DNA from: an uncultured delta proteobacterium
Lineage (GTDB): Bacteria; Desulfobacterota; WTBG01; CAIYCZ01; CAIRTM01
Length of the DNA: 14,498 bases
Reading direction: 5' to 3'
Assembly: GCA_963804955.1 (NCBI GenBank)
Contig: CAWDSQ010000004.1
Location: 1 to 14,498, forward strand
Part shown: positions 141 to 14,498 of the stretch, in pieces
Numbering within the stretch: position 1 is the stretch's first letter
Layout of the letters: each line of letters begins with the position of its first letter
Made by a program: the position numbers and the translations under genes
Notes under the pieces: model-generated
What the model was told of the DNA's origin: nothing
The model's database searches: none
Seen by the model: the letters and a program-made list of their open reading frames with translations, nothing else

Positions 141-145
141 GCTCG

Positions 146-382: not shown

Positions 383-398
383 GGTCTGCTCCCGAATA

Positions 399-926
399 TT
401 ATGAAGTTTTTTTTATATGCTTCAGGTCAAAGTGATCCCGCAGACGGTTTGCCGCCGTGAGCAGATCACCGTCGCGGCCCACTGCTTTAACCAGTTGCCC
501 GGTAGACAGGTGCAGTAGCTGAGCTGCAGTGCTCAGACTCCCTCTGGAGGCAAAAAGCGCATCAAGCACGGCCGCGCACACCTGCGGATACAGCGGGTTC
601 CGGGCGTTTATCCGCACGGGTACGTCAGCAGAAAAAATTTCCCGCACGCTTTCGTGAAGCATAAAATTTACGCTTCGCACCTGCAGAGCAAGGGCCATAC
701 GGAGCCGGCCCAAAGCTTTGTTTTTATTTTCGTGCTGCGACCTGCGTTCTTCGCCCGTAACGGTCACGCCCGTGGGGAGATGCGTCAGCCGCACGGCGCT
801 ATAGGTGCGGTTGCGGTGCTGGCCGCCCGGCCCCGAAGCTATATAGGTATCCACGCGACACTGCTGCAGCAGGTGCCCGTCATCAGAGGCTAGCATGTTC
901 AAAGCCCCGCCCTCACGCACAATCAT
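399..926 (-). CDS. Peptide chain release factor-like protein (GGQ peptidyl-tRNA hydrolase domain with a C-terminal helical/HTH-like extension)
   Basis: [23 protein letters not shown]...[10 protein letters not shown] is RF-1 domain 3; codon-recognition domains are absent. Start placed at ATG 926 (AAGGA just upstream) rather than TTG 995. Confidence 0.85.
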
Positions 927-1000
927 TTCCTTCACGCCCGGCCCCGCTGAAAAACGCTTTAAGCCCCTGCCCGGCAGGGCAGCCAACGGCTTCAACTAAA

Positions 1001-1777: not shown

Positions 1778-3319
1778 TTATTTTCCCGGTCGGATGGCAG
1801 GGATATAACCGGGTTCTATCGTCTGCAGGACTTCGCTGCTGCGCAATGGCCGGGTCGCCCGTCCGGTCATGCTCAGTAGAAATGTTGCGCTGCTCGTCTG
1901 GTTGAGACCTCCATGTGAAGAGGCCATGTCGATAAAGGCTCTAAAGAGCGGATATCCGCTCATGTATCCATCATTGAGAGTTATCATCAGGTCGGACGGG
2001 CAAATGACAATGCCGTGAAAGGCATCCCATATCCGTGGGGGAGCATTGGGCCATTCATGGTCAGCCGTTGCTGCAAACCAGTCGTCTGCTGAGGCATACC
2101 CTTCCGCATCAGCTTTTCCGGCCATAGCCAGCAAAGCGTGTATCGGCTGGTAGCCCAGTACATCCCGGTCAATGACAACATAGCGTAGTTTGCCGCCTTT
2201 TTTTTCTATGGCTGCCGAGCCCCTGTTGTCACGCACGATAACCCTGTCGCCTTGCATATATAGTGCAAGCTGCATCTGAGTCTTCTGCAGCAGTACGTCG
2301 GCAACAGCCGCCGGTCGCTGCGTATGTATGCCCGCATAGGTGACCAGGCCTTCCGTGTCGATAACGATATCGGTATCCGACTGGATTTTGTCCCTCACGG
2401 TAAATCCTGCCTCGTTTAAAATATTTTTTATAGATACGAACTGCGACGGCATGAGGTTGTGGCCGTGGTCGGCCAGTATGGAAATTTTAAGGGCCCCCTG
2501 ACGCTCCCATAAAAGCTGAAGGCACAGACGCTCTATTTCGCGCAGGCAGTCATCGACGCCCTGCCTGCCATATCTGCAGACCATGGCTGCGGAACTGACA
2601 ACATACGCCAGCGTTACCCGGTCCGTGCTTTGGTCGAGGGTCTGCTTGATGCTTTCCAATTCGCGGTTGAATGTCTTGCGCGTGTTTACAAACCCCAGCC
2701 CTTCCCTCATATAGTCGGCGTTGTAGTGCAGGCAGCGCTGCCAGGCCGTCTCTCCGCCCGTGGCAGCATCCCAGAAACGATTACATATCCGATTGATGCG
2801 CTGATCGTAGAAATAATTGTTTGTTCCCGCCAGCGGAGGGGCCTGCAGTATCTGGTTGAAAATAACGGCGCTCAGCGTCGGAAAGGGCGCGATCACCTTC
2901 TGAGGTGGTGGAAACCAACTGAAATGGCCGGCAGTGTAATAATCGAGCATGCACTGATAGGGGATCGAATCCAACAGAATAATCAGATGGGGGACACTGT
3001 CTGTCTCATAGTCATTAATGCGGTATATCCGGGCATAGCGGCCGTCTTCTTTATTGGCATAGGCAAGAGCGGTCGTCCGGTTGTCAGAATCGGCCTGCAG
3101 CGCAAAGTCGGCCTTGCCATTGCCGTTGACATCATAGCGGATTTCCTGCGGCGTTCGGGAAAGCGGGGCCTCGGGAAAAAACAGGTTTTTTGAGGAGACG
3201 CACCCCAAAGTGCAGATGCATAGGATTACCGTGAGCACCTTTGAAACCAGCCGTATAAAAACAGCCTGGTCTGAACCAGCTCTTTGCTTCTTAACCAAAC
3301 CTGCAATCTCCCGTATCAT
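1778..3319 (-). CDS. Alkaline phosphatase superfamily (NPP/phosphodiesterase-like) lipoprotein
   Basis: Hydrophobic signal with lipobox-like TLGC; LIILLDSIPY (metal Asp), PFPTLS (Thr nucleophile position), ILADHGH and SSHGG motifs; Ca-binding-like loop YDVNGNGKAD. Confidence 0.75.
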   Translation of the reverse strand: MIREIAGLVKKQRAGSDQAVFIRLVSKVLTVILCICTLGCVSSKNLFFPEAPLSRTPQEIRYDVNGNGKADFALQADSDNRTTALAYANKEDGRYARIYRINDYETDSVPHLIILLDSIPYQCMLDYYTAGHFSWFPPPQKVIAPFPTLSAVIFNQILQAPPLAGTNNYFYDQRINRICNRFWDAATGGETAWQRCLHYNADYMREGLGFVNTRKTFNRELESIKQTLDQSTDRVTLAYVVSSAAMVCRYGRQGVDDCLREIERLCLQLLWERQGALKISILADHGHNLMPSQFVSIKNILNEAGFTVRDKIQSDTDIVIDTEGLVTYAGIHTQRPAAVADVLLQKTQMQLALYMQGDRVIVRDNRGSAAIEKKGGKLRYVVIDRDVLGYQPIHALLAMAGKADAEGYASADDWFAATADHEWPNAPPRIWDAFHGIVICPSDLMITLNDGYMSGYPLFRAFIDMASSHGGLNQTSSATFLLSMTGRATRPLRSSEVLQTIEPGYIPAIRPGK

Positions 3320-3377: not shown

Positions 3378-3557
3378 CTGTCCTTAAATCGCCTTGCGCA
3401 GAGTGGAGGGAACTTTTTTTCTATACGCGCATGCATGACAGGCCAAAGTACGGTTGATTTGTCATTCTGTGCGCAACGGTTGCCATCTTCATATTTATCT
3501 GTTCTGCGCAACTTGCTAGAAGAAGGTCTCATGAAGTCATAAAGGATTAAAAACAAC

Positions 3558-3665
3558 TGTCATTGCGAACGAAGTGAGCAATCTCTGCCGCGTCGCGGAG
3601 TTTATCCTGAGCAGTGCCGAAGGGCTCCTCGCAAGGCGTACCGATGCTTTTTACAAAGGCATCAA
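3558..3665. repeat. Composite/nested REP-like palindromic element
   Basis: GTCATTGCGA(3559)...GCAATCT...TCGCAA(3629) outer arms enclose ATCCTGAGCAGTGCCGAAGGG (3604-3624); followed by hairpin GATGCTTTT-TAC-AAAGGCATC (3643-3663). Confidence 0.6.
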
Positions 3666-3755
3666 AATTAAGTTGCACAGGACAGCTGTAAAAAGCTGAA
3701 AACAGCGTGCCCGGGGATACCCGCTTAAGAAAAATATTGAGAGAATAGAGCTCCC

Positions 3756-5108
3756 GTGACAAAACTACTACTGGTCTCTGCCAATCAGTATACCGACCCC
3801 TCACCTGTTTACCCGCTGGGCATTTCATATCTTGAAACCTATCTGAGAGAGAAAATACCCGGGCTCGAGACTCAGTTGTTTGATTTTGCGGTAAACAGCC
3901 CCGCCGATTATGCGGATTATCTGCAGACATATACTCCTGACTATGTCGGCATTTCGCTGCGCAATGTTGATGATGTGAATGTTTACCGGCAGGAAAGCTT
4001 CTTCCAGCACTACAGCGGCATCATCGACACCACGCGGCGGTGCAGCCGGAGCATTATCATTATCGGCGGGCCCGGCTATTCCATCTATCCCCGCCTGCTT
4101 TTTGAATATCTGAAGCCCGACTTTGCCATTTATGGGGAAGGCGAAGAGAGTTTTTATGAACTATTGAAGGCTCTGGAGAGCAAGGCGGACTATGCTGCTG
4201 TTGAAGGGCTGGTCTATACAGACAATAGTGCGACCCTGGTGAATGAAAAGAAGCGCTATTGCCCTGATCCGAAAGTCTGCTTTAACAAAAGGCTTCTTGA
4301 CTTTTACTGGAAGCACGGCGGCATGCTCAATATACAGACCAAACGCGGCTGCCCGTATGCGTGCATCTATTGCACCTATCCTTTAATTGAAGGTAGCACG
4401 GTCCGTACGCTCGATGCCGGCAGAGTTGCCGACACGCTGGCGGACCTTTATTTCAAAAAAAAGATCGACTATGTTTTTTTTACCGATTCGGTCTTCAATA
4501 TCAATAATGCCTACAACCTCGAGCTGGCCGAGCGCATGATCAGCAAAAAGATGGGCCTCAAATGGGGCGGCTATTTTAACTTTTCAAACCTCGATGAAAA
4601 ATTATTGCGGGTTTTTAAGAAGGCGGGCCTTGCCCACATTGAGTTCGGCACAGACGCGCTGTCTGATACCACTCTCAAGAAGTACGGTAAACATTTTACG
4701 GTTGCTGATATACTTGACGTATCCAAGACATGCAACCGGCTAAAGATCGACAGCGCCCATTTTCTTATACTGGGCGGCTACGGAGAAACTGAAGACACTC
4801 TGAATGAAACCTTTGAAAACTCAAAGAAAATAGAGCGGACCGTGTTCTTCCCTTTTGTAGGCATGCGCATGTATCCCGGTACAAAGCTTTCTGCCCTTGC
4901 ACTTCAGGAAAACAAAATCAGCAAAGACAATAGTCTGCTTCATCCCACGTACTATGTCTCGGATAAAGTGAATATTTCCCTCTTGAAAGAAAAGGCAAAA
5001 AAAACCGGCCGGCAATGGATATTCCCCGATGAGGATATGACAGGGGTGAAGCAGCGGCTGCGATCACGAGGCAAAAAGGGTCCGCTCTGGGAGTATTTGC
5101 TGCGTTAG
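3756..5108 (+). CDS. B12-binding radical SAM protein, lipid-biosynthesis type (TIGR04072-like)
   Basis: N-terminal cobalamin-binding domain (LLVSAN..P.PVYPLGISYL, VGISLRNVD, IIIGGPG); RGCPYACIYC (CxxxCxxC); FFTDSVFN, IEFGTD, GGYGET. GTG start. Confidence 0.9.
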   Translation: MTKLLLVSANQYTDPSPVYPLGISYLETYLREKIPGLETQLFDFAVNSPADYADYLQTYTPDYVGISLRNVDDVNVYRQESFFQHYSGIIDTTRRCSRSIIIIGGPGYSIYPRLLFEYLKPDFAIYGEGEESFYELLKALESKADYAAVEGLVYTDNSATLVNEKKRYCPDPKVCFNKRLLDFYWKHGGMLNIQTKRGCPYACIYCTYPLIEGSTVRTLDAGRVADTLADLYFKKKIDYVFFTDSVFNINNAYNLELAERMISKKMGLKWGGYFNFSNLDEKLLRVFKKAGLAHIEFGTDALSDTTLKKYGKHFTVADILDVSKTCNRLKIDSAHFLILGGYGETEDTLNETFENSKKIERTVFFPFVGMRMYPGTKLSALALQENKISKDNSLLHPTYYVSDKVNISLLKEKAKKTGRQWIFPDEDMTGVKQRLRSRGKKGPLWEYLLR

Positions 5109-5272
5109 CAGTTTGTTGAAAAAATTATTAACTACAGTTAACTTCAGGCTGTTCAAAAATGCTCAGATGCAAGGCGCGCGCAATTATGCGAATGAGGCGT
5201 ACTTTTTCGTACGCCGCAGTGAAGCATGATGAGCGCAACGCAGCAGATGGGCGTTTTTCAACAGCCTGCTAG
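5106..5272. mobile_element. MITE-like non-autonomous element with IS-type terminal inverted repeats
   Basis: Left end TAGCAGTTTGTTGAAAAA (5106-5123), a second left-end copy CAGGCTGTTCAAAAA (5145-5159), right end TTTTTCAACAGCCTGCTAG (5254-5272); internal hairpin GGCGTAC-N6-GTACGCC; no transposase. Confidence 0.75.
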
Positions 5273-5295
5273 GACCTCTTGCGGAGAACTTTATA

Positions 5296-5324
5296 TTGAC
5301 ACCCAAAAGCCCGGGGCCTATATT
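5296..5324 (+). promoter_or_regulatory. Sigma70 promoter for methyltransferase-U32
   Basis: TTGACA-17 nt-TATATT, about 40 nt upstream of ATG 5364. Confidence 0.7.
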
Positions 5325-5363
5325 CGCCTCATCCCAAAACGAGATTCTATCCGTCGAGACCCA

Positions 5364-6026
5364 ATGACTAAAGCAAGGGTTCCAGAGACAAAAGCTACGC
5401 TTTCAGGTCGCGTCTATGCCGAAGCCTATGACCGGATGCAGGCAAATCTCCGGGAGAAGGGATGGCTTGAGACAGAGGAGCTTCTGCTCAATGGCAGTGT
5501 GACTGGCTGTGCTCTGGAGGTCGGATCGGGACCCGGCTATCTCGGGCTGGACTTGCTGCTGCAAACGAAGGATACCCGCCTCATCGGTCTTGACATAAGC
5601 CCGGACATGGTCGCGATAGCCAGGAACCACATGCAGGAATTAGGCCTTGCCGGCCGCGCCGAATACCTTCTTGGCTCTGCTGAGGCCATTCCCTTTGAGG
5701 ACAATGCCTTTGACGCGGTATTTACCAGCCGCTCGCTGCATGAGTGGCTTAATCCATGTACGACATTCACCGAGCTTTGGCGGGTGCTCAAGCCCGGAGG
5801 AAGATTATATGTGTCCGATCTGCGCAGGGACCTGTCACGCTCGGCCTGCAACTTTCTTGAGCAAAGGGTGAATTCCGAAGAAATCAGGGAAACTCTCCGG
5901 GCCTCAATCGGCGCTGCCTATACCAGGACAGAGGTGCTGGCTGTCCTCACTATGGCAGGACTCGCCGATTGCGAGGTTGTCGAAACATCGTTCGGTTTGC
6001 GAGTGACGGGAATGAAGCCGGTTTGA
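5364..6026 (+). CDS. Class I SAM-dependent methyltransferase (UbiE/Methyltransf_11-like), 220 aa
   Basis: ALEVGSGPG (motif I), IGLDISPDM, AEAIPFEDNAFDAV, SLHEW, RVLKPGG. The ORF-track start at 5226 lies within the MITE and upstream of the promoter, so ATG 5364 is preferred. Confidence 0.9.
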   Translation: MTKARVPETKATLSGRVYAEAYDRMQANLREKGWLETEELLLNGSVTGCALEVGSGPGYLGLDLLLQTKDTRLIGLDISPDMVAIARNHMQELGLAGRAEYLLGSAEAIPFEDNAFDAVFTSRSLHEWLNPCTTFTELWRVLKPGGRLYVSDLRRDLSRSACNFLEQRVNSEEIRETLRASIGAAYTRTEVLAVLTMAGLADCEVVETSFGLRVTGMKPV

Positions 6027-6048
6027 TCCGCGCTTTTGGAGAACGGCC

Positions 6049-7242
6049 ATGAAATTGAGTGTTGCTGCTAATTGGGACATCGAACTTCTTGACGGACTCG
6101 CGCATATTCCCGAGGTGGCTTCGGTCTATGCAAAGCTGCCCTATGACCTCGTGGGTGGAGGCAGGGCTGGCTCCGTGCTGCCTTCAGTGGACCTTGCTGC
6201 TGCCGCCGCTTATATCCGGGAAGCCCATAAGCGCGGCTTGTCGTTCAGTTACCTTCTTAATGCCCCGTGTCTGGGGAATCTTGAGCAGACGCAGGAGGGC
6301 AAAGAGCGCCTGCTCGCGTTTGTCGGTCAATTAGTTGAACTCGGGGTTGACAATGTGTCGATCTCGAACTTAGCGCTTGTGTCGCTGGTTCGGCGCAACT
6401 ACCCGGACTTGAGCATCCGCGGAAGCGTGCTTAGCTGGCCCACCAATCTGCCCAGATTGAAGTATCAGGAATCCCTTGGCGTCGATCCGCTGCTCCTGCC
6501 ATACAGTGAGTTTAACCGCGACTTCCCGGCGCTTGAGCGCGTCAGCGCAAACCTCTCATGCGGCATTGTGCTTTTTGTCAACATTGCATGCATCTATCAT
6601 TGCCATTACCTGGCCGAGCACGCATGCAGCGTGGGGCATGCCTCCCAGGAGAATCAGAACGGCAAAAAAACGAACTCCCTGCTTGATTCCTACCTGTGGC
6701 AGTGTACCCGCCGGCGATTAGTACAGCCGGAGCTCTTCCTCTCAAGCCGCTGGATCCGTCCGGAGGATTTACACCGGTACGAGGCCCTGGGATTCGAGGA
6801 GTTTAAGATCATTGATCGATCGCGCTCCACGGCATGGCTTTTGCGTGCCACAAAGGCCTATGCTTCCCGGCATTATGACGGAAACCTGCTTGATATTCTC
6901 TCCATCGAGATGCTGGGAGATCCTAACGGCTTTCACCCAAGTATCGAGGAGCAGAGCCGAAAAAGCCTGTTCCAGCTCGACAGGGAAGAGCGGCGCCTGC
7001 AGCTTCGAATGTTCAGGTTGCGGCAGCGCCTGCTGGCTCTTAACGTCACCATCGACAACGGACTGCTTTCGGATTTTTTAGAGGGTTTCGGGAAAATCCG
7101 GTGCGAGGAGACCTTCTGCGATGACTGCCGCTACTGCCATCGCTACGCCGAGCGCGCTGTGCGCTTCGATCGCGACGAAGCGGCGCGCCTCGTGGCTGAA
7201 ATCGACGAGCTCGTCGACGATTTCATGACAGCAAAGATGTAA
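6049..7242 (+). CDS. Peptidase U32 family protein (Fe-S, putative O2-independent hydroxylase)
   Basis: YIREAHKRGLSFSYLLNAPC, FNRDF, ACIYHC...C, WIRPEDL..YE..G...FKIIDR; extra C-terminal CEETFCDDCRYC; GGAGA RBS. Confidence 0.85.
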   Translation: MKLSVAANWDIELLDGLAHIPEVASVYAKLPYDLVGGGRAGSVLPSVDLAAAAAYIREAHKRGLSFSYLLNAPCLGNLEQTQEGKERLLAFVGQLVELGVDNVSISNLALVSLVRRNYPDLSIRGSVLSWPTNLPRLKYQESLGVDPLLLPYSEFNRDFPALERVSANLSCGIVLFVNIACIYHCHYLAEHACSVGHASQENQNGKKTNSLLDSYLWQCTRRRLVQPELFLSSRWIRPEDLHRYEALGFEEFKIIDRSRSTAWLLRATKAYASRHYDGNLLDILSIEMLGDPNGFHPSIEEQSRKSLFQLDREERRLQLRMFRLRQRLLALNVTIDNGLLSDFLEGFGKIRCEETFCDDCRYCHRYAERAVRFDRDEAARLVAEIDELVDDFMTAKM

Positions 7243-7336
7243 CCCCCGGCTCTCCTGTTGTATCTTTTCTAATTTTTTTAGTGCATGTTCATAACGCACC
7301 GTCTGCCGCAGCCTCATGAAGGAAGACGCTGCCGTG

Positions 7337-7365
7337 TTGACAGTGGGGGGCTTTTTGTCTATAGT
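7337..7365 (+). promoter_or_regulatory. Sigma70 promoter for membrane protein-ACP1-KS/CLF-deacetylase
   Basis: TTGACA-17 nt-TATAGT, about 43 nt upstream of ATG 7408. Confidence 0.7.
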
Positions 7366-7407
7366 GTGGCGACAATCGCAAATTATACATGCAGGGCGCT
7401 TGAAAGC

Positions 7408-7803
7408 ATGATGAAGAAGCTGGTTCGAAACGGCCTGGAAAAGCTTGCACGCAAGCCGTATATCCAGCGCATTCTGCAGGAGGAGCTTGACCTGCGCTGC
7501 CTTAAGCGTCGGCCTACGGCCCGCGAGCAGTTCGGCATTGTCCTTGTGCTGTTCAGCTATGTAATCGGTTGGCCGGCGGTTGCTTTGTTCGGATTTCTCG
7601 CCCTGTATCTCAAGCAACCCCTGGTTCTTATCATCGGCGGGCCGCTTATTTACGGTTTTTCACATATCGTTTTTTTTGCGGGTATGTATATTGCCGGAAA
7701 GGATTACACCAAACTGTTTATAAAATGGTCCGTTAAAAAAATATGCGAAAAGATTGCACCCGGCGCTCCGGTGCTGCCGGCAGATGCTGCAAAAGCCCAG
7801 TGA
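7408..7803 (+). CDS. Small membrane protein of unknown function (about 131 aa, 2 hydrophobic segments)
   Basis: Basic N-terminus, then FGIVLVLFSYVIGWPAVALFGFLALYL and LVLIIGGPLIYGFSHIVFFAGMYI; start placed downstream of the promoter. Confidence 0.75.
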   Translation: MMKKLVRNGLEKLARKPYIQRILQEELDLRCLKRRPTAREQFGIVLVLFSYVIGWPAVALFGFLALYLKQPLVLIIGGPLIYGFSHIVFFAGMYIAGKDYTKLFIKWSVKKICEKIAPGAPVLPADAAKAQ

Positions 7804-7822
7804 TGCATACATGGAAGACCAC

Positions 7823-8089
7823 ATGGAAGAACTTATACAGGAACTCAAAGTCAAAATTGTCGAGACGCTCAATCTCATCAGCATAACCCCGGACAGCATC
7901 GATGCAGACGCCCTGCTTGTGGGCGGTGAGCTGGGCCTTGACTCCATCGATGTGCTTGAGCTGGTGATGATGGTTGAAAAGGATTATGGCCTTCGGATCG
8001 ACAGCAAGGAGCTCGGCATCAGGGTCTTTGCCTCCCTCAAGGCCCTGGCGGACTATATCCACAAGAACCGGCCGGAGACGAGCCCTTGA
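7823..8089 (+). CDS. Acyl carrier protein 1 (aryl-polyene/flexirubin-cluster type)
   Basis: MEELIQELKVKIVETLNL..ITPDSID....GGELGLDSIDVLELV; phosphopantetheine Ser in GLDSID. Alternative start at 7811. Confidence 0.92.
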   Translation: MEELIQELKVKIVETLNLISITPDSIDADALLVGGELGLDSIDVLELVMMVEKDYGLRIDSKELGIRVFASLKALADYIHKNRPETSP

Positions 8090-10247
8090 GCAGCATGCGG
8101 GTATTTGTCACCTCTCTCGGAATCATAAGCCCTCTCGGCAAAAACGCCATAGAAACATGTGCAGCTCTCACAGAATCGACATGCGGACTCGCGCCGCTTT
8201 CTCTCTTCCCCTCCTCCGTTGAGCCTCCCCTGCCGGCAGGGGAAATCAAATGCCTTCTGTCCGATGATGTCGCCCCGCACGCACGGCCTTGCGCTTATTG
8301 CAGCCCGTGAGGCTATGGCCGGTGTCGCCGGCCCCCCCGATGCCATCGTTGTGGGTGTTACAACGGGCGGCATGCCCGCAAGCGAGCCCCTTTTAAAAAG
8401 CGGCGCTGCCGACCCAGGCATGTATTCCCTGCATGGGGCTGGAACGGTTGCCCATTATGTGGCTGAAGCGCTCGGCTGTCAGGGCCCGGTGCTGACCGTG
8501 TCAACGGCCTGCTCCTCAAGCATGGCGGCTTTGAAATTAGCAGTTGAGCTTCTGCGAAGCGGCAGGGCGCGGCGTGTGCTTGCCGGAGGCGCTGACGGCC
8601 TGTGCCGTTTGACCTATTATGGTTTTCATTCCCTGCAGCTGGTCGATCCGGCAGGCGCCCGGCCTTTTGATAAAGACCGGCGGGGCATGAGTCTCGGTGA
8701 AGGAGCTGCCATGCTTTTCTTAGAGGCTGCCGCGGAGCCGCCGGCAGGGGCGCTGGCTGAGGTTCTTGGCGTTGGCCTGAGCTGCGATGCCTATCACCCC
8801 GCAGCTCCTCACCCTGATGGCGACGGGCGCTCTCCGCGCCATGCAGCAGGCCCTTTCTGCGGCTGGACTGCAAGCCTCTGAAATAGAGTATATTAATCTG
8901 CACGGCACCGGAACCCCAGACAATGATCTGGCCGAGGCGCGGGCAGTGCATGCCCTCTTCGACCTGTCCCCCCTGCCGCCGGTTTCATCTCTTAAGGGCG
9001 CCATCGGGCATACCCTGGGCGCAGCCGGTGCGGTCAATGCGGCAGTGTCTGTGCTGTGTATCAGCCACGGCATCATACCGGCCAATACCGGCTGCCGCGA
9101 ACCTGATCCGGCTGTGCACCTAAAGCCTGTTGCTGCGCCGCTGCGCAGGCCCGTTGCAGCTGGTGCTTTCCAATGCTTTCGGCTTTGGCGGCAACAATGC
9201 ATCAATCGTTCTCGGTAACCCAGCCGCAGCGAGAGTACCCGTGCACAACAGAAGCGGGAGCACTGTTTTTTCCGTGCTTGGCAGCGCCTGCCTCACCGGC
9301 GGGGGCAATCTGTATGCAGACCATGAAGCGCCTTGCCTCAGGAGAAACTATCTGCGGCATGGCACCGGCACAGGCCATTATGCAGGGGCTTCAAGAAAGC
9401 GCCGTGCGGCGGCTCAAGCGTCTGCCGCGCATGGTCCTGTCGCTTGCCGCAGCTGCCTGCGAAGGCCGGGATGGGCCGGCCGCAATATGTTTCGGCACCG
9501 GCTGGGGCGGGCTGTCTGAAACGAATGATTTTCTCGAGAGGCTCTTTGCAACGCAAGAGCGCTTTACCAGCCCCACCGATTTTATCGGCTCCGTGCACAA
9601 TGCCCCGGCAGGCCAGGCTGCCATGCAGCTGCAGGCACAGGGTGCGAACCTGACCCTTACGGATGGGGATTATTCTTTTGAGCAGGCGCTTTTCAGCGCT
9701 GGCCTGATTGCCCATGAGGCAGACGGGCCCCTGCTGGTGATGGGCGCTGATGAATACCATGAAAAGCTTACCCCGCTTTTTGACCCATCGGCAGCCTGCG
9801 GTGTAGACGGCGGCGGCGCTCTGCTGCTTCGCCCTTCGGCCGCGGCAGAGGCACTGAGCATCACCCCTGTTTTTCTTTCAAATGCACTACAGCCTGAAGA
9901 TGCTCTGCACCTGCTTATCCATGAGCTGGGAGGGCCTGTGGCTGTGGGAAAAAAGTTCGGCGCCATCTTTGCAGGCATTCCGGCAGCCCGGTCGTGATAT
10001 GGCCCGGGAGCAGCTCAGGCTGTTTCTGGAGATGACAGGCTGCACCTGTCCGGTCATTGATTATAGAAAAGTGACCGGCGAGTTCGCCTCGGCCTCGGCT
10101 GTGGCAGCAGTCATAGCCCTGGAGTGTGTCAGGGCAGGAGCATTGCCCGCAGCCGTGCATCCGGCCGGCCCGTGCCTTCTGCACAACAAAGCCGTACTGC
10201 TGCTGGGGTTGGGCCGGTGCATAACTGCTGTGGAGATACGGGGTTGA
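8086..10247 (+). CDS. Beta-ketoacyl-ACP synthase fused to a chain-length-factor domain (KS-CLF, about 718 aa once repaired); five +1 frameshifts as sequenced
   Basis: Six consecutive ORF pieces give VFVTSLGIISPLG / STACSSS / DAYH / INLHGTGTPDND / KGAIGHTLGAAG / SNAFGFGGNN, then CLF motifs RRLKRLPRM, FGTGWG, SPTDFIGSVHNAPAG, SFEQAL, YRKVTGEFASASA. Shifts near 8271, 8826, 9162, 9313 and 9988. TTG start overlaps the ACP1 stop, with GGAG upstream. Confidence 0.85.
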
Positions 10248-11073
10248 TGGATATGAACAATCCAGCTCCATCACCGCTTCTGCCGGTGGTAAAACTCGCC
10301 CTGCTGTGCGCCTGCGCATCAATGGCTCTTGCAATGATCAATGAGGTGCTCTGCGTGCTGCCGCTTGCGGTATTTGTCAGTTCATGCCTCGCAGCTCCGT
10401 TTTTGCCGCGGTACGGATTTTTTCTGCCGGTCATCAGCCGGGGATGCACGGGCAAAAACATGGTTGCCCTGACATTTGATGACGGCCCTGATCCTGCAAC
10501 AACCCCCCGGCTTCTTGAACTGCTTGAGAAATACAAGGCGAAAGCAGCCTTTTTTGTCATTGGAGAAAAGGCGCAGCGCCATCCGGAGCTTATGCGGGAT
10601 ATTATCGCCTGCGGCCATGCTGTGGGCAATCATTCCTACAGCCATGACGTGCTGCTCATGCTGCGGTCCCGCCGGACACTGGCGTCGGAAATCCGCACGG
10701 CCCAGCAGGCCATGAGCGCCTTTGACATACGACCGCTTGTTTTCAGGCCGCCCGCAGGAATCACCAATCCGAAACTGGGAAGCGTTTTAAGACAACAGGG
10801 CCTGCAGTGTCGTCACCTTCAGCTGCCGCGGCTTTGATGCCGGCAATCGCCGCATCAAGGGGCTGGCTGACAGGATACTGCGGAAAGTCCGGCCTGATGA
10901 CATTATTCTGCTGCATGATTGCATGCCCCGAGGGCCTGCCACGGTGGACATGTGGCTTGACGAGGTTGAAGCTCTTCTTGCGGGGCTTGCGGAAAAAAAT
11001 CTTGCTCCGGTGCCGCTTGAACAATCTGATCGGCAGGCCCGTCTGCAGCAGTCTGGTTGAAAAAGCTTTGTAA
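10247..11073 (+). CDS. Membrane-anchored polysaccharide deacetylase (CE4/NodB), about 274 aa once repaired; two +1 frameshifts as sequenced
   Basis: ATG overlaps the KS-CLF stop (TGATG); hydrophobic N-terminus; ALTFDDGP, GNHSYSH, FRPPAG; after a shift near 10809, VVTFSCRGFDAG...DIILLHD; after a shift near 11025, LIGRPV. Confidence 0.85.
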
Positions 11074-11095
11074 ATCTTGCTTTGCAGCAATTCAA

Positions 11096-11124
11096 TTGAC
11101 TCTGCACATGGTTTTTCATATACT
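11096..11124 (+). promoter_or_regulatory. Sigma70 promoter for lipoprotein-dehydratase-ACP2-radical SAM pair
   Basis: TTGACT-17 nt-TATACT, about 47 nt upstream of TTG 11171. Confidence 0.65.
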
Positions 11125-11170
11125 TGCGTACACTTGTCAGAACGATTAAATACCGTGATAGGGGGATCAC

Positions 11171-12043
11171 TTGAAAGCATATTCCGTGAGCTGGGGTGTC
11201 GCAGCGCTGTTTACTCTGGCATGCATGGCGACGGGCTGCGGGCACTTCAACAAAGCAGTGTATGAAAACTCATTTACCACCCTTCAGGAAAGCGCGGTCA
11301 AATACAGCGATCAGGGCAGATATGAAGAAGTGGTCTATATTACCCGGGCGCTGCTTGATTCCGAGCCAGACAATTATGATGTCCGACGACTGCAGGATAC
11401 GGCCGTAGCAGCCCAGCCGGCCACGGAGGCCATGGTCAATAAGTCGCTGTTTGGGGCGAATTTAAGCGACCGGATTACCGATGAAAACTTTCCCGTACTG
11501 GGAAGCATTTTGCTGTATATTCCCAATCGTATTCTCGATTTCATAGATCTTATTACGGTTGAAGCTGGACTTTGCCTAGGTATCGGCGCAAAAGCTCAGG
11601 CAACAGACGCCTTCAGCTTGGGCCTGCAGGGATCTGCGGGCGAGGCCATGTTCGGCCTCGTGGGCCGCAATTTGTCGGTACGCGCAACCCAGGAGGAGTT
11701 CTTCCATCTGCTGCCGGTCGGCAGCGCCTATCTGTCCGAGGCGCGAGCCTATACTGCCGGGACATACGGGATGATATCAAGCCAGGGCGGGCTGAAACTG
11801 CCCACAGATCATATTTATCAGAGGGCGCGTGACTACTGGGCCATCGGCGCACAGGCCGAGGCGCTGAGTGTTGCGGCCAATGTGAAATTTCACCCCATAG
11901 AGGTTTTTGATTTTATAGCGGGTTTTTTCTTTTTTGATCCACTCAAGGATGATATCGGCTCGACACGCCCTATCCATGTAGACCTTACGGATAATGAAAC
12001 CGAGGCTTTGGATAATCTGGCGTATCAAACGCGATTTCGGTAA
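11171..12043 (+). CDS. Lipoprotein of unknown function (290 aa)
   Basis: TTG start with GGGGGA RBS; signal peptide ending in lipobox-like ATGC; helical TPR-like N-terminal part; Gly/Ala-rich hydrophobic core bounded by NRILDFID and EVFDFIAGFFFFDPLKDD. Confidence 0.75.
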   Translation: MKAYSVSWGVAALFTLACMATGCGHFNKAVYENSFTTLQESAVKYSDQGRYEEVVYITRALLDSEPDNYDVRRLQDTAVAAQPATEAMVNKSLFGANLSDRITDENFPVLGSILLYIPNRILDFIDLITVEAGLCLGIGAKAQATDAFSLGLQGSAGEAMFGLVGRNLSVRATQEEFFHLLPVGSAYLSEARAYTAGTYGMISSQGGLKLPTDHIYQRARDYWAIGAQAEALSVAANVKFHPIEVFDFIAGFFFFDPLKDDIGSTRPIHVDLTDNETEALDNLAYQTRFR

Positions 12044-12048
12044 AGGCC

Positions 12049-12447
12049 ATGCCGCAAGCCTGGCAAAAATTTGAAATTAGCAGTATACATGAAGACAGCC
12101 TGGAAGCCCGCGGGGCAGCTCCTGCCGGGTCCCCATGGTTTGACGGGCACTTCCCCGGCCAGCCGATACTGCCCGGCATCGCCATGATTGCCATGGCCTA
12201 TGACGCTGCGAGGGAAAAAGAGGCGAACGGGGGGCATCGCATGCGGCTGAAAGCTGTAAAAAGGGTACGGTTTAAAAAGCCGGTCCGGCCTGATGAGCCC
12301 TTTACGCTGGCGCTCAAGCGCGAACAGAAGGAAAGCGGGGTCTTATATGCTTTCACGATTCTGCTGGCCGGCGAGGCGGCTTGCACCGGCATCGTACATC
12401 TTGAGCCGCTTGCCGGATACTCTGATAATAAAACAACTGTCTGTTAA
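12049..12447 (+). CDS. FabA/FabZ-like (ApeI-like) hotdog-fold acyl-ACP dehydratase subunit
   Basis: SPWFDGHFPGQPILPG and VKRVRFKKPVRP motifs. Confidence 0.85.
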   Translation: MPQAWQKFEISSIHEDSLEARGAAPAGSPWFDGHFPGQPILPGIAMIAMAYDAAREKEANGGHRMRLKAVKRVRFKKPVRPDEPFTLALKREQKESGVLYAFTILLAGEAACTGIVHLEPLAGYSDNKTTVC

Positions 12448-12460
12448 TGAAGGAGGTTGA

Positions 12461-12733
12461 ATGTCTGCTGGTATTAATGAAAAAGAGCTTCAGCTGCGTG
12501 TCGCGCAAATCATAATCAGCGAACTGAAGCTGCAGGATATCACAGCGGAAACGTTTGATCCTGATCTTGATCTTGTGGATGAAATCGGTATCGACAGCAT
12601 GGACCTTGCCACCATCGTGCTGGTGCTGCAGGATGAGTACGCCGTCAAGATCGATGAGGACGACTATCCCAAACTGCGCGCCATACGCCTTATAGCGGGC
12701 TATATTCAGGAGCGGCTTCAGGCAAAAGCCTGA
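12461..12733 (+). CDS. Acyl carrier protein 2
   Basis: AAGGAGG RBS; acidic 90 aa; DLVDEIGIDSMDLA with phosphopantetheine Ser. Confidence 0.92.
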   Translation: MSAGINEKELQLRVAQIIISELKLQDITAETFDPDLDLVDEIGIDSMDLATIVLVLQDEYAVKIDEDDYPKLRAIRLIAGYIQERLQAKA

Positions 12734-12748
12734 TACGCCCATCGCATT

Positions 12749-13815
12749 ATGAGCGCAGAACAGCCCTCCTCGACCCCGAAATACAGATTTGCCGACCTGC
12801 TTGCAGAGCCTGCCGTGCGCGAACGCTGGGAGCGGGTGCGCACGTATTTCTTCCTGCGCGAATCAACCTATGACATGACCCACCGTTGCAATATCCGGTG
12901 CGACGGCTGCTACTACTATGCCGGCGACAAGCAGTTTACAGCCGACAAGGGCGACCCTCAAGCCTGGCGCAAGCTTATGCGCGATGAGAAAGCACGCGGC
13001 ATCACCTTCGTAGTGCTGGCCGGCGCCGAGCCTGCCCTTGTTCCCGAGCTTCTGCAGGCCTGTTATGATGAGATTCCGCTTGGCTGCATTGCCACCAACG
13101 GGGTGAAGCGTATCGAACAATCGGTGGGGCACAAGATTCACGTGTCGGTCTGGGGAAATGACGCCACAAGCCTGCGGGTGCGAAAGCAGAAGGATATGCT
13201 TGAGAAGCAGCTAGATAATTACCGGGGCGACAGCCGGACCGTGTTTGTGTATACCTTTACGCATGACAATATCGATGAAGCAGGCCCGGTGATCGACTAT
13301 CTTGCAGCACATGACTGCAAGGTCACCTTCAATGTGTTCTCTGCGCCGGTCGGCTACACCGGAGCATTGCGGCACACGCAAGAGTCGCTTGCCCGGATGC
13401 GAAGGAGCCATGCTTGATCTGCTTGGCCGCATATCCGCGGCAGATGCTTTTTTCGCCCTACAGCGCTGTTGCCCACTCGCACCGGCTGGGGCTGCACGGG
13501 CTCTACGGCTGCCCGTATCCGCGCATGAACCATTCAGCGGATATCGGCCTGGGCCGTTCGTTCCGGCAGTACCGCTCGGATCTTACCTGGGACCGCAGCG
13601 CGTCCTGCTGCGTGCCTGATACGGACTGCGCCGATTGCAGGCATTATGCCGCAGGCAGCGCCGTGGTAACCTCAAAGCTCTATCGCCATGCAACCGATCC
13701 GGATACCTTCAAAGCATGGCTTGATTATGTGGATACCTATCTTGCCGTCTGGGTCACGGGGTATGAAAAAGGCGAGAACCTCTGCCGCGGTCCTGTTGAG
13801 CCGCCGGAGGGGTAA
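12749..13815 (+). CDS. Radical SAM protein A with C-terminal auxiliary Cys cluster, about 354 aa once repaired; two +1 frameshifts as sequenced
   Basis: YDMTHRCNIRCDGCYYY, LAGAEP, IATNG, VSVWG; shifts near 13405 and 13425 give ARMRR-AMLDLL-AAYPRQMLFSPY; C-terminal GCPYPR...CCVPDTDCADCRHY. Confidence 0.85.
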
Positions 13816-13824
13816 GTGTTTGCG

Positions 13825-13855
13825 AGTGCGCAGGGCGCACTATTTAATTTATTTT
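13825..13855 (+). terminator. Terminator-like hairpin between the two radical SAM genes
   Basis: AGTGCGC-AGG-GCGCACT (7-bp stem) followed by ATTTAATTTATTTT, starting 10 nt after the stop. Confidence 0.35.
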
Positions 13856-13903
13856 AGGAGCGCATGTATGCGCGATGATTTCGCGGCTGAAGCCGCTCCT
13901 ACA
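13855..13903. repeat. Inverted REP doublet of the GTAG family
   Basis: Right copy TCGCGGCTGAAGCCGCTCCTACA is the reverse complement of TGTAGGAGCGGCTTCAGCCGCGA; degenerate left copy TAGGAGCGCATGTATGCGCGA. Confidence 0.7.
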
Positions 13904-13933
13904 GTCTATAGCCCACAGCCTAAAGATTAAACT

Positions 13934-14498
13934 ATGCAACTCATAAGCTCAATGCTCGATCCTGACTGGTATGCGCGGTACAAGCGCATAGCAAGCCTCA
14001 ATATTCGCAGCTCCATCTACGATGTTACAAACCGCTGCAACCTGCGGTGCAAGGGCTGCTTCTTTTTTTCATCCGATGAAGATCAGGCCGCGCCCGAGGA
14101 GATGAGCATTGCAGCCTGGGAAGCCTTCGTGGAGCGGGAAAAAGAGCGCGGCGTCAATCTTGCCATTCTCATCGGCGGCGAGCCCACGCTCTATATGGAC
14201 CGCATCGACGCCTTCTACAAGCGCCTGCCCACCTACTGCGCCACCAACGGCCAGATCAAGGTGCCGCGCGACCGGTTTCCCGATCTGATGGTGGGCATAT
14301 CGCTCTGGGGCGATGAGGAGGATGAAAAGCTGCTGCGCGGCAAGGATACCTTCGCCGTTTCAAGCCGTAATTATGCGGGCGACCCCTACACGTACTATCT
14401 CTACACCATCACCCCGAAACAGCTGGGCCGCATCGACCGCATGGTTAAGAAGATACAAGATGTCGGGCTGAAAGTGCATCTGCAGCTTCTGTCAAATG
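13934..14498 (+). CDS. Radical SAM protein B, paralogue of A (runs off the right edge)
   Basis: Not in the ORF track. 188 open codons: MQLISSMLDPDWYARYKRIASLNIRSSIYDVTNRCNLRCKGCFFF...AWEAFVEREKERGVNLAILIGGEP...CATNG...ISLWG. Confidence 0.92.
   Translation, partial: MQLISSMLDPDWYARYKRIASLNIRSSIYDVTNRCNLRCKGCFFFSSDEDQAAPEEMSIAAWEAFVEREKERGVNLAILIGGEPTLYMDRIDAFYKRLPTYCATNGQIKVPRDRFPDLMVGISLWGDEEDEKLLRGKDTFAVSSRNYAGDPYTYYLYTITPKQLGRIDRMVKKIQDVGLKVHLQLLSN

Follow-up and report, generated by a model that had tools for sequence, protein, structure and literature searches.

The class to which the locus analysed here is assigned was described by comparative genomics in 2009 (Rattray 2009, PMC2649909); antiSMASH gives its members the label 'ladderane' in Desulfobacterota and in further phyla (PMC9902471). 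A syntenic cluster is known from Desulfotalea psychrophila, a species in which no ladderanes were detected according to the accessible part of the 2009 paper. No characterised product for the class was found in the literature, as far as the accessible parts of PMC13459092, PMC10139942, and PMC9902471 extend.

The window (14,498 bp) is the entire contig C4 of a MAG (G000) from an uncultured Desulfobacterota-type anaerobe. With a probability of roughly 0.8, it covers one half, the chain-building one, of a ~35–40-kb lipid/pigment supercluster that is conserved and falls into the class catalogued as 'ladderane-type' or aryl-polyene-like; the link to the Kuenenia and Desulfotalea clusters was set by gene content as described in the accessible part of PMC2649909. 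The novelty implied by the initial annotation is not supported in view of the earlier description and antiSMASH label. Features that appear particular to this copy are an undescribed, invariant methyltransferase–U32 pair and a B12-radical SAM gene that is both divergent and displaced.

Gene content of the window and frame breaks

All of the genes listed in the initial annotation are present at 3756–14498 on the + strand (Table 1). They were compared with those of G003 (same genus), G018 (another family), seven distant genomes, and 401 genomes sampled from the phylum.

Table 1. Features of the window, with positions, strands, and the basis of each assignment
Feature	Position	Strand	Basis or remark
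513-aa lipoprotein-like gene, N-terminal lipobox	1778..3319	-	divergent to cluster; ORF and sequence
Class B (cobalamin-binding) radical SAM, divergent TIGR04072 member	3756..5108	+	PF02310, PF04055
128-bp palindromic repeat element	5145..5272		between B12-radical SAM and methyltransferase genes
Class I SAM methyltransferase	5364..6026	+	PF08241, 78.8 bits
Divergent U32-family Fe-S protein, 397 aa	6049..7242	+	PF01136, 24.0 bits (cut-off 22.4)
Small membrane protein, two long hydrophobic stretches	7408..7803 (about)	+	head of core cluster
Acyl carrier protein 1 (PRK09184 type), LDSID serine motif	7811..8089	+	PF00550
Fused ketosynthase/chain-length-factor, ~720 aa	8086..10247	+	PF00109, PF02801, PF13723 on pieces
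CE4 polysaccharide-deacetylase-type enzyme, N-terminal hydrophobic stretch	10181..11073 (about)	+	PF01522, 109.4 bits
Lipoprotein, 290 aa, variable accessory gene	11171..12043	+	lipobox-like N-terminus
ApeI/FabZ-type hotdog dehydratase	12049..12447	+	PF07977, 32.3 bits; PF22818 (ApeI-like), 32.1 bits (cut-off 28.5)
Acyl carrier protein 2	12461..12733	+	PF00550
Radical SAM A, about 355 aa, paralogue of B	12749..13815	+	PF04055; CxxxCxxC
Radical SAM B, residues 1–188 of 332, truncated by contig end	13934..14497	+	PF04055, 37.4 bits

The proposed ACP-dependent, aryl-polyene-like type II system was upheld. ACP1, present in all seven distant clusters, scores 76.9 bits against NF006617 (cut-off, 70), and ACP2 is 68–73% identical across the phylum and always immediately precedes the radical SAM pair. 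The KS-CLF is likewise present, with the correction that both halves are fused into one reading frame: it is a single 724-aa ORF in G018, whereas five single-base indels divide it into six frame segments (frames 1-2-3-1-2-3) in the window. The KS half retains Cys-His-His; the CLF half, read from the 724-aa G018 sequence, has no such Cys. The CE4 enzyme, encoded in three of the seven distant clusters, contains the TFDDGP and HSYSH motifs, and its gene has one frame break near 10809–10812.

The small membrane protein has no Pfam match; its orthologue in G018 has 131 aa, and the gene occurs in five of the seven distant clusters. The 290-aa lipoprotein, also without a Pfam match, is absent from G018 and all seven distant clusters and mostly absent from G003; its protein-atlas neighbours, a lead only, are annotated as 'putative lipoprotein' of Spirochaetota. 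No match in Pfam or NCBIfam was obtained for the 513-aa lipoprotein-like protein, which possibly belongs to the alkaline-phosphatase/phosphodiesterase superfamily; its atlas neighbours, again a lead only, carry the name type I phosphodiesterase (score 0.98). The gene adjoins the cluster in syntenic position in G002, G003, G004, G018, L102, L105, and L108.

Radical SAM A contains a conserved C-terminal Cys set besides CxxxCxxC, with two frame breaks near 13400–13440, and shares extra conserved cysteines with radical SAM B (alignment of nine A and nine B sequences). By fold, the radical SAM B model comes closest to anSME, SkfB, and further SPASM/twitch enzymes, at a TM of about 0.4, and 1932 proteins matched radical SAM B at E≤1e-10. 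Together with the B12-radical SAM and the U32 protein with its nine invariant cysteines, four Fe-S enzymes are predicted, in agreement with the annotation.

The window thus carries eight frame breaks, namely five in the KS-CLF gene, one in the CE4 gene, and two in the radical SAM A gene, and the MAG contains a second copy of the locus (C35:79352-91371 and C21:36634-34191; 89–96% nucleotide identity). The two copies and the occurrence of frame breaks in both would be compatible with real mutations in a decaying, non-functional, redundant duplicate of the C35/C21 cluster, but this is very unlikely. The breaks in the C35/C21 copy are at sites other than those in C4, and at the radical SAM A junction, which was compared in four assemblies, G003 and G018 read through without a break. 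Short-read contigs from independent public runs show single-base differences at 9162, 9992, 10811/10812, and 13431-13440, i.e. they differ by exactly one base at four of the eight predicted break sites; at 10811/10812 in the CE4 gene, one base is omitted in the contigs of X1, X2, and X4, and in radical SAM A an X1 contig shows indels at 13431, 13437, and 13440. Genes in split pieces were also seen on other contigs of the MAG. In the U32 region, moreover, most substitutions that separate the copies are synonymous (96% protein versus 91.9% nucleotide identity), a sign of purifying selection between them. C4 matches the ends of C35 and C21 across their junction, as would be seen with an alternative strain contig rather than a tandem duplicate. 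Given the differing positions, the intact junction in G003 and G018, and the single-base differences in independent contigs, the frame breaks are very probably assembly indels or errors rather than signs of pseudogenes. The palindromic repeat, which is matched 24 times in the MAG, in 19 cases over ≥90 bp, and folds as a single long hairpin (-66.7 kcal/mol), sits elsewhere in the C35 copy (C35:86567-86693).

Conserved core and second half of the supercluster

G003 is collinear with the locus from the 513-aa gene to PlsC, lacking TylF and most of the lipoprotein, and the G018 cluster is collinear except for the B12 gene. The order dehydratase–ACP2–radical SAM A–radical SAM B–KS2–KS3–4HBT was found in all seven distant genomes, each of which also has a TIGR04072-type B12 gene and ACP1; the KS-CLF occurs in five, as a single full-length match in four. 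Because gene order is kept in G003, in G018, and, for the core, in all seven distant genomes, the cluster genes are, on the evidence of synteny, not chance neighbours, which answers an objection raised in the annotation itself. Radical SAM B was found in 31 of the 401 sampled genomes (71–80% identity in 28 others; the query was taken from G018, which therefore scores 100%). The A paralogue lies beside it in 29 of the other 30 genomes, and a TIGR04072-type match occurs on the same contig at a distance of ≤20 kb in 19 of these 30; TIGR04072 was above its cut-off in 79 of the 401 genomes. The modules thus co-occur widely, but a U32 gene adjoining the cluster was seen in only 2 of these 31 genomes. 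Treating three radical SAMs plus a U32 protein as one unit is not supported: the radical SAM pair and the TIGR04072 enzyme belong to the core, whereas the U32 gene is found only in a pair with the methyltransferase gene.

As anticipated, the locus extends past the window, with an acyltransferase on C21 and a ketoreductase in the second half on C1. On C21, the cluster continues for ~9 kb with three more ketosynthases (Cys-His-His intact in all three), a thioesterase, and the PlsC acyltransferase. In relatives, a contiguous aryl-polyene-like second half includes an aromatic ammonia-lyase, an AMP-ligase, a FabG-type ketoreductase, an ApeP-like dehydratase (below the Pfam cut-off; 22.9 versus 27), a phytoene-dehydrogenase-like oxidase, more B12 enzymes, LolA, an MMPL-methyltransferase, GT2, and an LpxL-like acyltransferase. 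In G003, G018, and G122, the ammonia-lyase gene shares a contig with PlsC and lies 5–11 kb past it. The second half of G018 is homologous gene by gene to about 55.9–76 kb of C1 in G000, so that in this MAG the two halves sit on separate contigs. An aryl starter is not universal: G056, a complete genome, contains the core cluster but no PF00221 match.

In agreement with the annotation, the window B12-radical SAM is a member of the B12-radical SAM family first noted beside anammox lipid candidate genes (TIGR04072; 406.6 bits; cut-off, 360). This membership and the antiSMASH label could be taken to point to ladderane lipids (concatenated cyclobutanes), like those of anammox bacteria, as the product of the cluster. 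Such a product is extremely improbable, considering the syntenic cluster of Desulfotalea psychrophila without detected ladderanes, the aryl-polyene hallmarks of the supercluster (ammonia-lyase, AMP-ligase, LolA, and MMPL), and an ApeI-like rather than amxFabZ-like dehydratase. The nearest solved relatives of this dehydratase include 3esi and, among others, 6qsr, which we take to be ApeI, whereas PDB chains named Beta-hydroxyacyl-ACP dehydratase, presumably the anammox amxFabZ, gave only E values of about 1e-4. Furthermore, the phylum in which the core was found (31 of 401 genomes) is not known to include anammox bacteria.

Methyltransferase–U32 pair and displaced B12-radical SAM

Identity of the window B12-radical SAM is 80% to its counterparts in L010, L011, and L102, all close relatives, and 73–77% to a copy found in pieces in G003, but only 30–37% to 40 other TIGR04072-type proteins compared. 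Because of this divergence and its absence from the otherwise collinear G018 cluster, the displaced enzyme may act differently from the core B12 enzyme.

The listed methyltransferase ORF (5226–6026) begins inside the repeat, and the G018 orthologue aligns from 5364; the true start is likely to be near the latter position. The protein has no specific NCBIfam family at its cut-off, and its gene is directly upstream of the U32 gene in all 15 loci examined. The U32 family profile matches PDB 5d88, a U32 peptidase (E 1.2e-12), which is also the best Foldseek match of the AlphaFold model (pLDDT 84.3; TM 0.73 on target). Nine cysteines are invariant (alignment positions 74, 171, 181, 185, 219, 352, 357, 360, and 363), four of them forming an extra C-terminal CX5CX2CX2C motif outside the stretch matched by PF01136 and 5d88. 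Across more than 120 clusters, orthologues show 68–93% identity. The pattern CXnCX9CX3C resembles CXnCX12CX3C of UbiV, as given in the accessible part of PMC6747719, and prephenate is described as the O donor for UbiU/V in that of PMC10990095. In two lineages, the pair is followed by genes for chorismate mutase/prephenate dehydratase and EPSP synthase.

The pair is not a core part of the cluster, judging from its distribution: a U32-like match at E≤1e-40 was found in only 3 of the 31 radical SAM B genomes (G000, G018, and G368, in the last of which it lies 430 kb away), and 6 of 15 close-family loci, representing three lineages, have no lipid-cluster gene within the stretch examined. The pair, perhaps with the displaced B12-radical SAM, might thus be an unrelated, self-contained module that merely adjoins the lipid genes in this lineage and acts, for example, on a quinone or on tRNA/rRNA (hydroxylation of the TrhP/RlhA type and subsequent methylation). 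The sole NCBIfam match of the U32 protein is TrhP (19 bits) and the methyltransferase weakly matches CmoB (25 bits), but both scores are far below the family cut-offs (534 and 275 bits, respectively). One of the six loci without lipid genes follows queuosine genes (queC/queD/queE-type), distant homologues (30–38%) have non-lipid surroundings and adjoin transporters, other B12-radical SAMs, or a methyltransferase of the UbiE type, and the U32 gene was found in none of the seven distant core clusters. Nevertheless, lipid-cluster genes share the stretch with the pair in 9 of the 15 loci, where four arrangements occur: the pair stands at the cluster head, after PlsC, in divergent orientation, or within a rearranged cluster. 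Elsewhere, the MAG has at least four canonical U32 genes already, and the protein considered here has the additional invariant four-Cys motif. An unrelated module is therefore considered unlikely.

Proposed biosynthesis

No member of the class has a known product, so we infer every chemical step. The ammonia-lyase would make an aromatic acid, which the ligase would activate and transfer to ACP1 for extension to a polyenoyl-ACP by the KS-CLF, the ketoreductase, and the ApeI/ApeP-type dehydratases, a scheme whose chances we regard as even. The ACP2 block (radical SAM A/B, KS2, KS3, and the thioesterase) would build or remodel the carrier-bound chain by radical C-H chemistry, e.g. C-C coupling or desaturation, and acyl-ACP is its somewhat favoured substrate. 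The B12-radical SAM might C-methylate an unactivated carbon, although the odds are slightly against this. The radical methylation, cyclisation, or cross-linking put forward in the annotation is likewise conjectural. Still more tentatively, the methyltransferase–U32 pair could perform O2-independent hydroxylation, with prephenate as the O donor by analogy with UbiU/UbiV, and subsequent O-methylation, most plausibly on the aryl ring of the head group. Finally, the acyltransferases, CE4, GT2, LolA, and MMPL may join the chain to a glyco- or phospholipid for export to the envelope, for which the case is about evenly balanced. The class to which this supercluster belongs, catalogued since 2009, is widespread in oxygen-free bacteria.

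Gene content and assembly state of the locus

The window spans contig C4 in full (14,498 bp). The contig belongs to a 36-contig MAG (G000; 87% complete), and its plus strand carries 12 co-directional genes from position 3756 to the contig end (Table). The gene list of the initial annotation, which had proposed an anaerobic lipid cluster dependent on acyl carrier proteins (ACPs), was correct, each gene being present on this strand. The ketosynthase (KS) and chain-length factor (CLF) form one fused frame: they make up a 724-aa open reading frame (ORF) in G018, a genome of another family in the same order, and give a full-length single match in the distant genomes G056, G133, G122, and G196, and in the window the C-terminus of the KS continues into the N-terminus of the CLF without a stop. 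The Cys-His-His residues are retained in the KS half and in three further ketosynthases; as read from the 724-aa G018 sequence, the CLF half has no such Cys. Searches of NCBIfam gave no family-specific match for the paired paralogous radical SAM proteins (rSAM A and rSAM B), the 513-aa gene, the membrane protein, the lipoprotein, or the TylF-like methyltransferase encoded past the window end. In the PDB sequence search, the methyltransferase and the second ACP (ACP2) matched generic relatives only, and the anammox methyltransferase structure was absent from the matches. Among 24 public sequencing runs, no RNA dataset was listed and none contained half of the sampled words (best, 0.23).

Features of the window contig and their supporting matches
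Feature	Position	Strand	Assignment and evidence
prfH-like release factor gene and PHP-domain fragment	3-995	-	contig start; unrelated to the cluster; TIGR03072 66 bits for the prfH-like gene, under the cut-off of 166.65
513-aa lipoprotein-like gene	upstream of the cluster	-	no Pfam match; phosphodiesterase-like in the protein atlas (lead only)
Repeat	3492-3688		~100-200 bp; just 5' of the start of gene 1
Gene 1 (B12 gene)	starts 3756	+	cobalamin-type radical SAM; PF02310 and PF04055; TIGR04072 406.6 bits, cut-off 360
Palindromic element	5145-5272		128 bp; hairpin of -66.7 kcal/mol
Gene 2		+	class I methyltransferase; orthologues align from ~5364
Gene 3		+	U32-family protein; PF01136 24.0 bits, cut-off 22.4
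Gene 4		+	small membrane protein
Gene 5		+	ACP (ACP1); NF006617 (PRK09184-type) 76.9 bits, cut-off 70
Gene 6		+	KS and CLF; PF00109/PF02801 and PF13723
Gene 7		+	CE4 deacetylase; motifs TFDDGP and HSYSH
Gene 8		+	lipoprotein
Gene 9		+	ApeI/FabZ-type dehydratase; PF22818 (ApeI-like) 32.1 bits, cut-off 28.5
Gene 10		+	second ACP (ACP2)
Genes 11 and 12		+	paralogous radical SAMs A and B; B interrupted by the contig end
Frame breaks in KS-CLF (5)	near 8237-8259, 8826, 9133-9158, 9312-9317, 9988-9993	+
Frame break in CE4 (1)	near 10809	+
Frame breaks in rSAM A (2)	near 13400-13440	+

The 128-bp palindromic element has 24 matches in the MAG, and the genes that flank it differ between the two cluster copies (see below), so it resembles a mobile MITE/REP-like repeat. 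The listed methyltransferase ORF begins inside this element, which supplies it with a false upstream start. The repeat preceding the B12 gene recurs on contigs C19, C25, C26, C13, and C11, and the C19 copy precedes a different B12-radical SAM gene; it may be a regulatory element common to these sites or nothing more than a repeat. Because no RNA family was found by Rfam in the whole window (E<=0.1), it is not a known riboswitch.

A blastn comparison with the rest of the MAG showed that C4 is duplicated over its full length by C35:79352-91371 together with the end of C21 (36634-34191, reversed), with 89-96% identity. C4 thus spans the C35/C21 junction and is another version of this locus, most likely derived from a second strain or a closely related species within the bin. 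The U32 region shows 91.9% DNA identity and 96% protein identity between the copies, indicating that their divergence is real and under purifying selection. Eight frame breaks in the window give KS-CLF, CE4, and rSAM A the appearance of pseudogenes, as decay of the locus would. Such decay was rejected: the breaks in the C35/C21 copy lie at positions other than those in C4, the rSAM A junction is uninterrupted in G003 (same genus) and G018, and contigs from independent public runs (X1, X2, and X4; 88-99% alike) show single-base differences from the window at 9162 (X1) and at 9992 and 10811/10812 (all three runs), an X1 contig also showing single-base indels at 13431, 13437, and 13440. In the best 12 of 22 matches, these single-base differences cover at least four of the eight predicted break sites. 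The breaks are therefore most likely assembly indels and the apparent pseudogenes artefacts.

Extent of the supercluster and conservation of its modules

As the initial annotation had anticipated, the locus extends beyond the window. On C21, the remainder of rSAM B is followed by three ketosynthase genes, the first FabF-type and the third closest to PRK09116 (393 bits for the G018 orthologue, under the cut-off of 470). A TylF-type methyltransferase gene lies between the first two, a 4HBT thioesterase gene between the second and the third, and a PlsC-type acyltransferase gene after the last. In G003, G018, and G122, an aromatic ammonia-lyase gene is found 5-11 kb past PlsC on the same contig. 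The second half of the G018 cluster encodes a phytoene-dehydrogenase-like oxidase, a B12-radical SAM protein, an AMP-ligase, an ApeP-like dehydratase (22.9 bits, under the Pfam cut-off of 27), a FabG-type ketoreductase, LolA, a B12-binding protein, the ammonia-lyase, a FakA-DegV fusion, a GT2, an MMPL-methyltransferase fusion, and an LpxL-like acyltransferase. This stretch is homologous gene by gene to ~55.9-76 kb of contig C1 of G000, indicating that the C4-type and C1 loci are halves of one supercluster of ~35-40 kb; the chain-building and the tailoring/export halves are contiguous in relatives and lie on separate contigs in G000. Genes for predicted functions absent from the window, i.e. 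aryl starter activation, ketoreductase, ApeP-like dehydratase, and LolA/MMPL export, are located past PlsC in relatives and on C1 in G000. The earlier remark that neither ketoreductase nor acyltransferase is visible thus holds for the window but not for the locus, which has the acyltransferase on C21 and the ketoreductase in the second half (C1). The complete genome G056 possesses the core cluster and no ammonia-lyase, so an aryl starter is not a feature of the whole class.

In a sample of 401 genomes across the phylum, rSAM B was detected in 31, with 71-80% identity in 28 of the other 30; those outside this range are G018, the source of the query (100%), and G077 (32%). The rSAM A paralogue adjoins rSAM B in 29 of the other 30 genomes, and in 19 of the 30 rSAM B has a TIGR04072-type match (E<=1e-60) at a distance of 2-20 kb on the same contig. 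TIGR04072 scores above its cut-off in 79 of the 401 genomes. Clusters were fetched from seven distant genomes (G056, G133, G122, G120, G318, G398, and G196), all of which share the order dehydratase-ACP2-rSAM A-rSAM B-KS2-KS3-thioesterase as well as ACP1 and a TIGR04072-type B12 gene beside KS-CLF/ACP. KS-CLF and the small membrane protein are each present in five of the seven, and CE4 and KS4-PlsC in three. None of the seven carries the U32 protein, its partner methyltransferase, the lipoprotein, or TylF; the genes for the last two are variable among relatives. The co-occurrence proposed in the initial annotation is therefore confirmed for the core modules, which are real partners rather than chance neighbours. 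These comparisons show a carrier-protein assembly line that is a dedicated one and is shared by different families.

A wider search with rSAM B returned 1932 homologues (E<=1e-10). The best 120 of these 1932 are 78-97% identical and include MAGs labelled Spirochaetes and Syntrophales, with no Kuenenia, Desulfotalea, or Geobacter name among them. The cluster proteins of G018 (locus L065, G018:C12:44000-63999) are 80-96% identical to those of G000 (KS4, 96%; ACP2, 96%; U32, 90%); this could reflect horizontal transfer of the cluster, extreme conservation, or an error of binning or taxonomy.

Relation to described lipid and polyene clusters

The gene content matches that of Kuste3335-3352 of Kuenenia stuttgartiensis and the syntenic loci of Desulfotalea psychrophila, Geobacter, and Pelobacter, as these are described in the accessible text of Rattray 2009 (PMC2649909). 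According to that text, those clusters contain two neighbouring radical SAM genes (Kuste3343/3342, corresponding to DP1855/DP1853), many FabF paralogues and ACPs, a polysaccharide-deacetylase-like gene (Kuste3351), a lipoprotein gene (Kuste3352), a SAM methyltransferase, phytoene-dehydrogenase-like and phenylacetyl-CoA-ligase-like genes, a new small membrane protein, and a B12-radical SAM (Kuste2803) (PMC2649909). A counterpart of each was found in the window, on C21, or in the second half, and adjacent paralogous radical SAM genes stand beside ACP and FabF-paralogue genes here as well, in the order ACP2-A-B-KS2-KS3 in 7/7 distant genomes. We infer orthology to the Kuenenia and Desulfotalea proteins from domain content and TIGR04072 membership, those loci being known by description. 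In contrast to them, the B12 gene heads the operon and KS and CLF are fused here, and the methyltransferase-U32 pair goes unmentioned in the accessible text, in which the word 'peptidase' occurs 0 times (PMC2649909). Clusters called 'ladderane' by antiSMASH in Desulfobacterota and eight other groups are expressed, with function reported as unknown (PMC9902471), and the radical SAM steps still count as unknown in a 2026 review (PMC13459092); the accessible parts of both sources report no product for any carrier of the class. The class had thus been catalogued in 2009 and again under the antiSMASH name (PMC2649909, PMC9902471), and the novelty implied by the initial annotation is not supported. 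The cluster is a methyltransferase-U32-bearing version, with the B12 gene displaced, of this known uncharacterised class.

Among solved relatives of the dehydratase, the best match is 3esi (2.5e-8) and the fifth is 6qsr (8e-7), which we take to be ApeI, while 7qv0 and 8ayc, presumably amxFabZ chains, score about 2e-4. The best structure matches of ACP2 are ordinary ACPs. The amxFabZ-type dehydratase and amxACP of the anammox-specific cluster were not found in the window, and because its dehydratase is not amxFabZ-like, the locus is not that cluster as characterized in the accessible part of PMC10139942. Ladderane synthesis was rejected on the same ground and because, according to the accessible text of PMC2649909, no ladderanes were found in Desulfotalea. 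The celluxanthene arylpolyenes of anaerobes are unrelated, being described as products of a type I iterative PKS (PMC12144888, accessible part).

Likeness to aryl polyene (APE) clusters of Gammaproteobacteria was tested with the Pfam ApeI-like and ApeP-like models, and the locus was found to possess KS and CLF (PF13723), a dedicated ACP of the PRK09184 type, and an ApeI-like dehydratase above the Pfam cut-off. It also shares with APE and flexirubin (Bacteroidota) clusters the PRK09185/PRK09116-type ketosynthases, a thioesterase, and a lysophospholipid-type acyltransferase, and, in the second half, an AMP-ligase, a FabG-type ketoreductase, GT2, LolA, and MMPL; the aromatic ammonia-lyase of the second half is a feature of flexirubin pathways. 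Unlike APE and flexirubin clusters, the present one encodes up to six radical SAM/B12 proteins, a U32 protein, CE4, a phytoene-dehydrogenase-like oxidase, and four ketosynthases predicted to be active; in addition, KS and CLF are fused and the ApeP-like match is under the cut-off. We know of no pigment from any carrier of the cluster.

Radical SAM enzymes and the methyltransferase-U32 pair

The B12 enzyme matches TIGR04072 (lipid biosynthesis B12-binding/radical SAM protein) over residues 3-449, aligning with positions 1-442 of the 443-position model and scoring 406.2 bits when the genome was searched, and its gene shares an operon with two ACPs and KS-CLF. The identity of the enzyme to 40 other family members amounts to only 30-37%. 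The gene is at the operon head only in the genus-level group of the window (C4, C35, G002, G003, G004, and locus L102) and is absent from the otherwise collinear G018, L105, and L108. rSAM A and rSAM B are 26-29% identical in the family alignment, and both carry CxxxCxxC and five conserved C-terminal Cys (C...CC-X6/7-C-X2-C); Pfam scans gave no SPASM match on either. The rSAM B model (pLDDT 71.7) has its Cys-rich stretch, residues 241-292, below 50, and its best fold matches, at TM about 0.4, are anSME, SkfB, CteB-type enzymes, BlsE, SuiB, and similar proteins. The two appear to be auxiliary-cluster enzymes of an unnamed family, the poorly modelled fold placing rSAM B broadly among SPASM/twitch enzymes.

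The PF01136 match of the U32 protein exceeds the gathering score and spans residues 89-151 only (63 residues), and the U32 fold is found in the AlphaFold model (pLDDT 84.3), for which PDB 5d88 is the best Foldseek match (TM 0.73 on target); the family profile also matches 5d88 (E 1.2e-12). Nine Cys are invariant in homologues down to 30% identity, arranged as C74...C171-X9-C181-X3-C185, then C219, then a C-terminal CX5CX2CX2C. The patterns expected for [4Fe-4S] clusters in the hydroxylase branch of the U32 family (UbiU/UbiV, TrhP, and RlhA) are CX6CX15CX3/4C or the CXnCX12CX3C of UbiV, and the putative cluster Cys set, whose first Cys lies far ahead of the others, resembles the latter with different spacing (PMC6747719, accessible text). 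At least four canonical U32 genes lie elsewhere in the MAG. The strongly conserved orthologue group comprises at least 120 clusters at 68-93% identity, with 967 proteins at E<=0.001; in the 401-genome sample, a close copy occurs only in G018 (90%), 31 other genomes have 30-38% homologues, and a scan of reference-genome contigs with the U32 protein returned only 7 loci.

The methyltransferase gene is directly 5' of the U32 gene in all 15 close-family loci with usable flanks. Lipid-cluster genes are on the same stretch in nine of these, in four different arrangements, and the remaining six come from three lineages. In two metagenomic lineages (L118-L120; L121/L032), the pair is followed by chorismate mutase and EPSP synthase genes, with prephenate dehydratase in one of them; in the other, it lies after queuosine genes and before genes for a B12-radical SAM and KAS III. 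In locus L031, a 5.8-kb insert (L031:1637-7118) carrying genes for a NucS-like nuclease, an AAA ATPase, and a sigma-54 activator separates the U32 gene from the rest of the cluster.

UbiU/UbiV are O2-independent U32 hydroxylases of ubiquinone biosynthesis that depend on prephenate (PMC6747719, PMC10990095), which is described as their O donor (PMC10990095). The present protein shares with them the PF01136 domain and U32 fold, a fixed SAM methyltransferase neighbour, comparable with hydroxylation followed by O-methylation in ubiquinone synthesis, and, in two lineages, the vicinity of chorismate mutase/prephenate dehydratase; by analogy, these neighbours are suggestive of prephenate as an oxygen source for a U32 hydroxylase. 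It differs from UbiU/UbiV in being a single gene rather than a U/V pair, with no neighbouring UbiT-like (SCP2) gene in Pfam scans, and in its short Pfam match, its extra C-terminal CX5CX2CX2C, and its lipid/polyketide context in place of quinone genes. To our knowledge, hydroxylation by every U32 enzyme characterised so far takes place at an aromatic or heteroaromatic C-H. Among the literature matches listed, 'U32' was not found in papers on ladderane, aryl polyene, or flexirubin clusters. We tentatively propose, at a probability of about three in ten, that the pair may be a portable prephenate-dependent, O2-independent hydroxylation/O-methylation module that strict anaerobes would have added to aryl-polyene-like clusters, where it would decorate the aryl head group.

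Among seven distant U32 genes, five have a B12-radical SAM gene directly downstream or one gene further, and the same adjacency is seen in L033, a locus of the close U32 family. Loci in further families of the phylum with a distant (30-38%) homologue followed by a B12-radical SAM are L067, L068 (G163), L069 (G368), L070 (G358), and L071 (G092); one of them also encodes LutA/LutB-like Fe-S proteins and a UbiE methyltransferase, and another LuxC/LuxE-type acyl reductases. That the arrangement recurs in other Desulfobacterota tentatively suggests a broader, as yet undescribed family of tailoring pairs made up of a U32 and a cobalamin enzyme.

In lyase-bearing versions, including that of the window, KS-CLF would extend an activated aromatic acid starter, the ketoreductase and the ApeI/ApeP-type dehydratases taking part as they do in aryl-polyene/flexirubin pathways. 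The highly conserved ACP2 block may perform radical chemistry on the carrier-bound chain, and the B12 enzyme would most plausibly catalyse C-methylation. The U32 protein would hydroxylate without O2, after which its partner methyltransferase would O-methylate, and the thioesterase, acyltransferases, CE4, GT2, LolA, and MMPL may attach and export the lipid. If the reading of the pair as a hydroxylation/O-methylation module is true, this would be a U32 hydroxylase acting in lipid/polyketide metabolism and not on quinones or RNA, a role for which we know of no earlier example.

The window by itself reveals no new kind of system. Its addition is modest but concrete: the chain-building and tailoring/export halves form one supercluster in relatives, the class has a fused KS-CLF, and the apparent pseudogenes are most likely artefacts. 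Of the gene clusters in anoxic environments that have no assigned product, the FAS II/aryl-polyene-like ones rich in radical SAM genes rank among the most widespread, and the accessory methyltransferase-U32 pair provides a specific handle on the product of the class.
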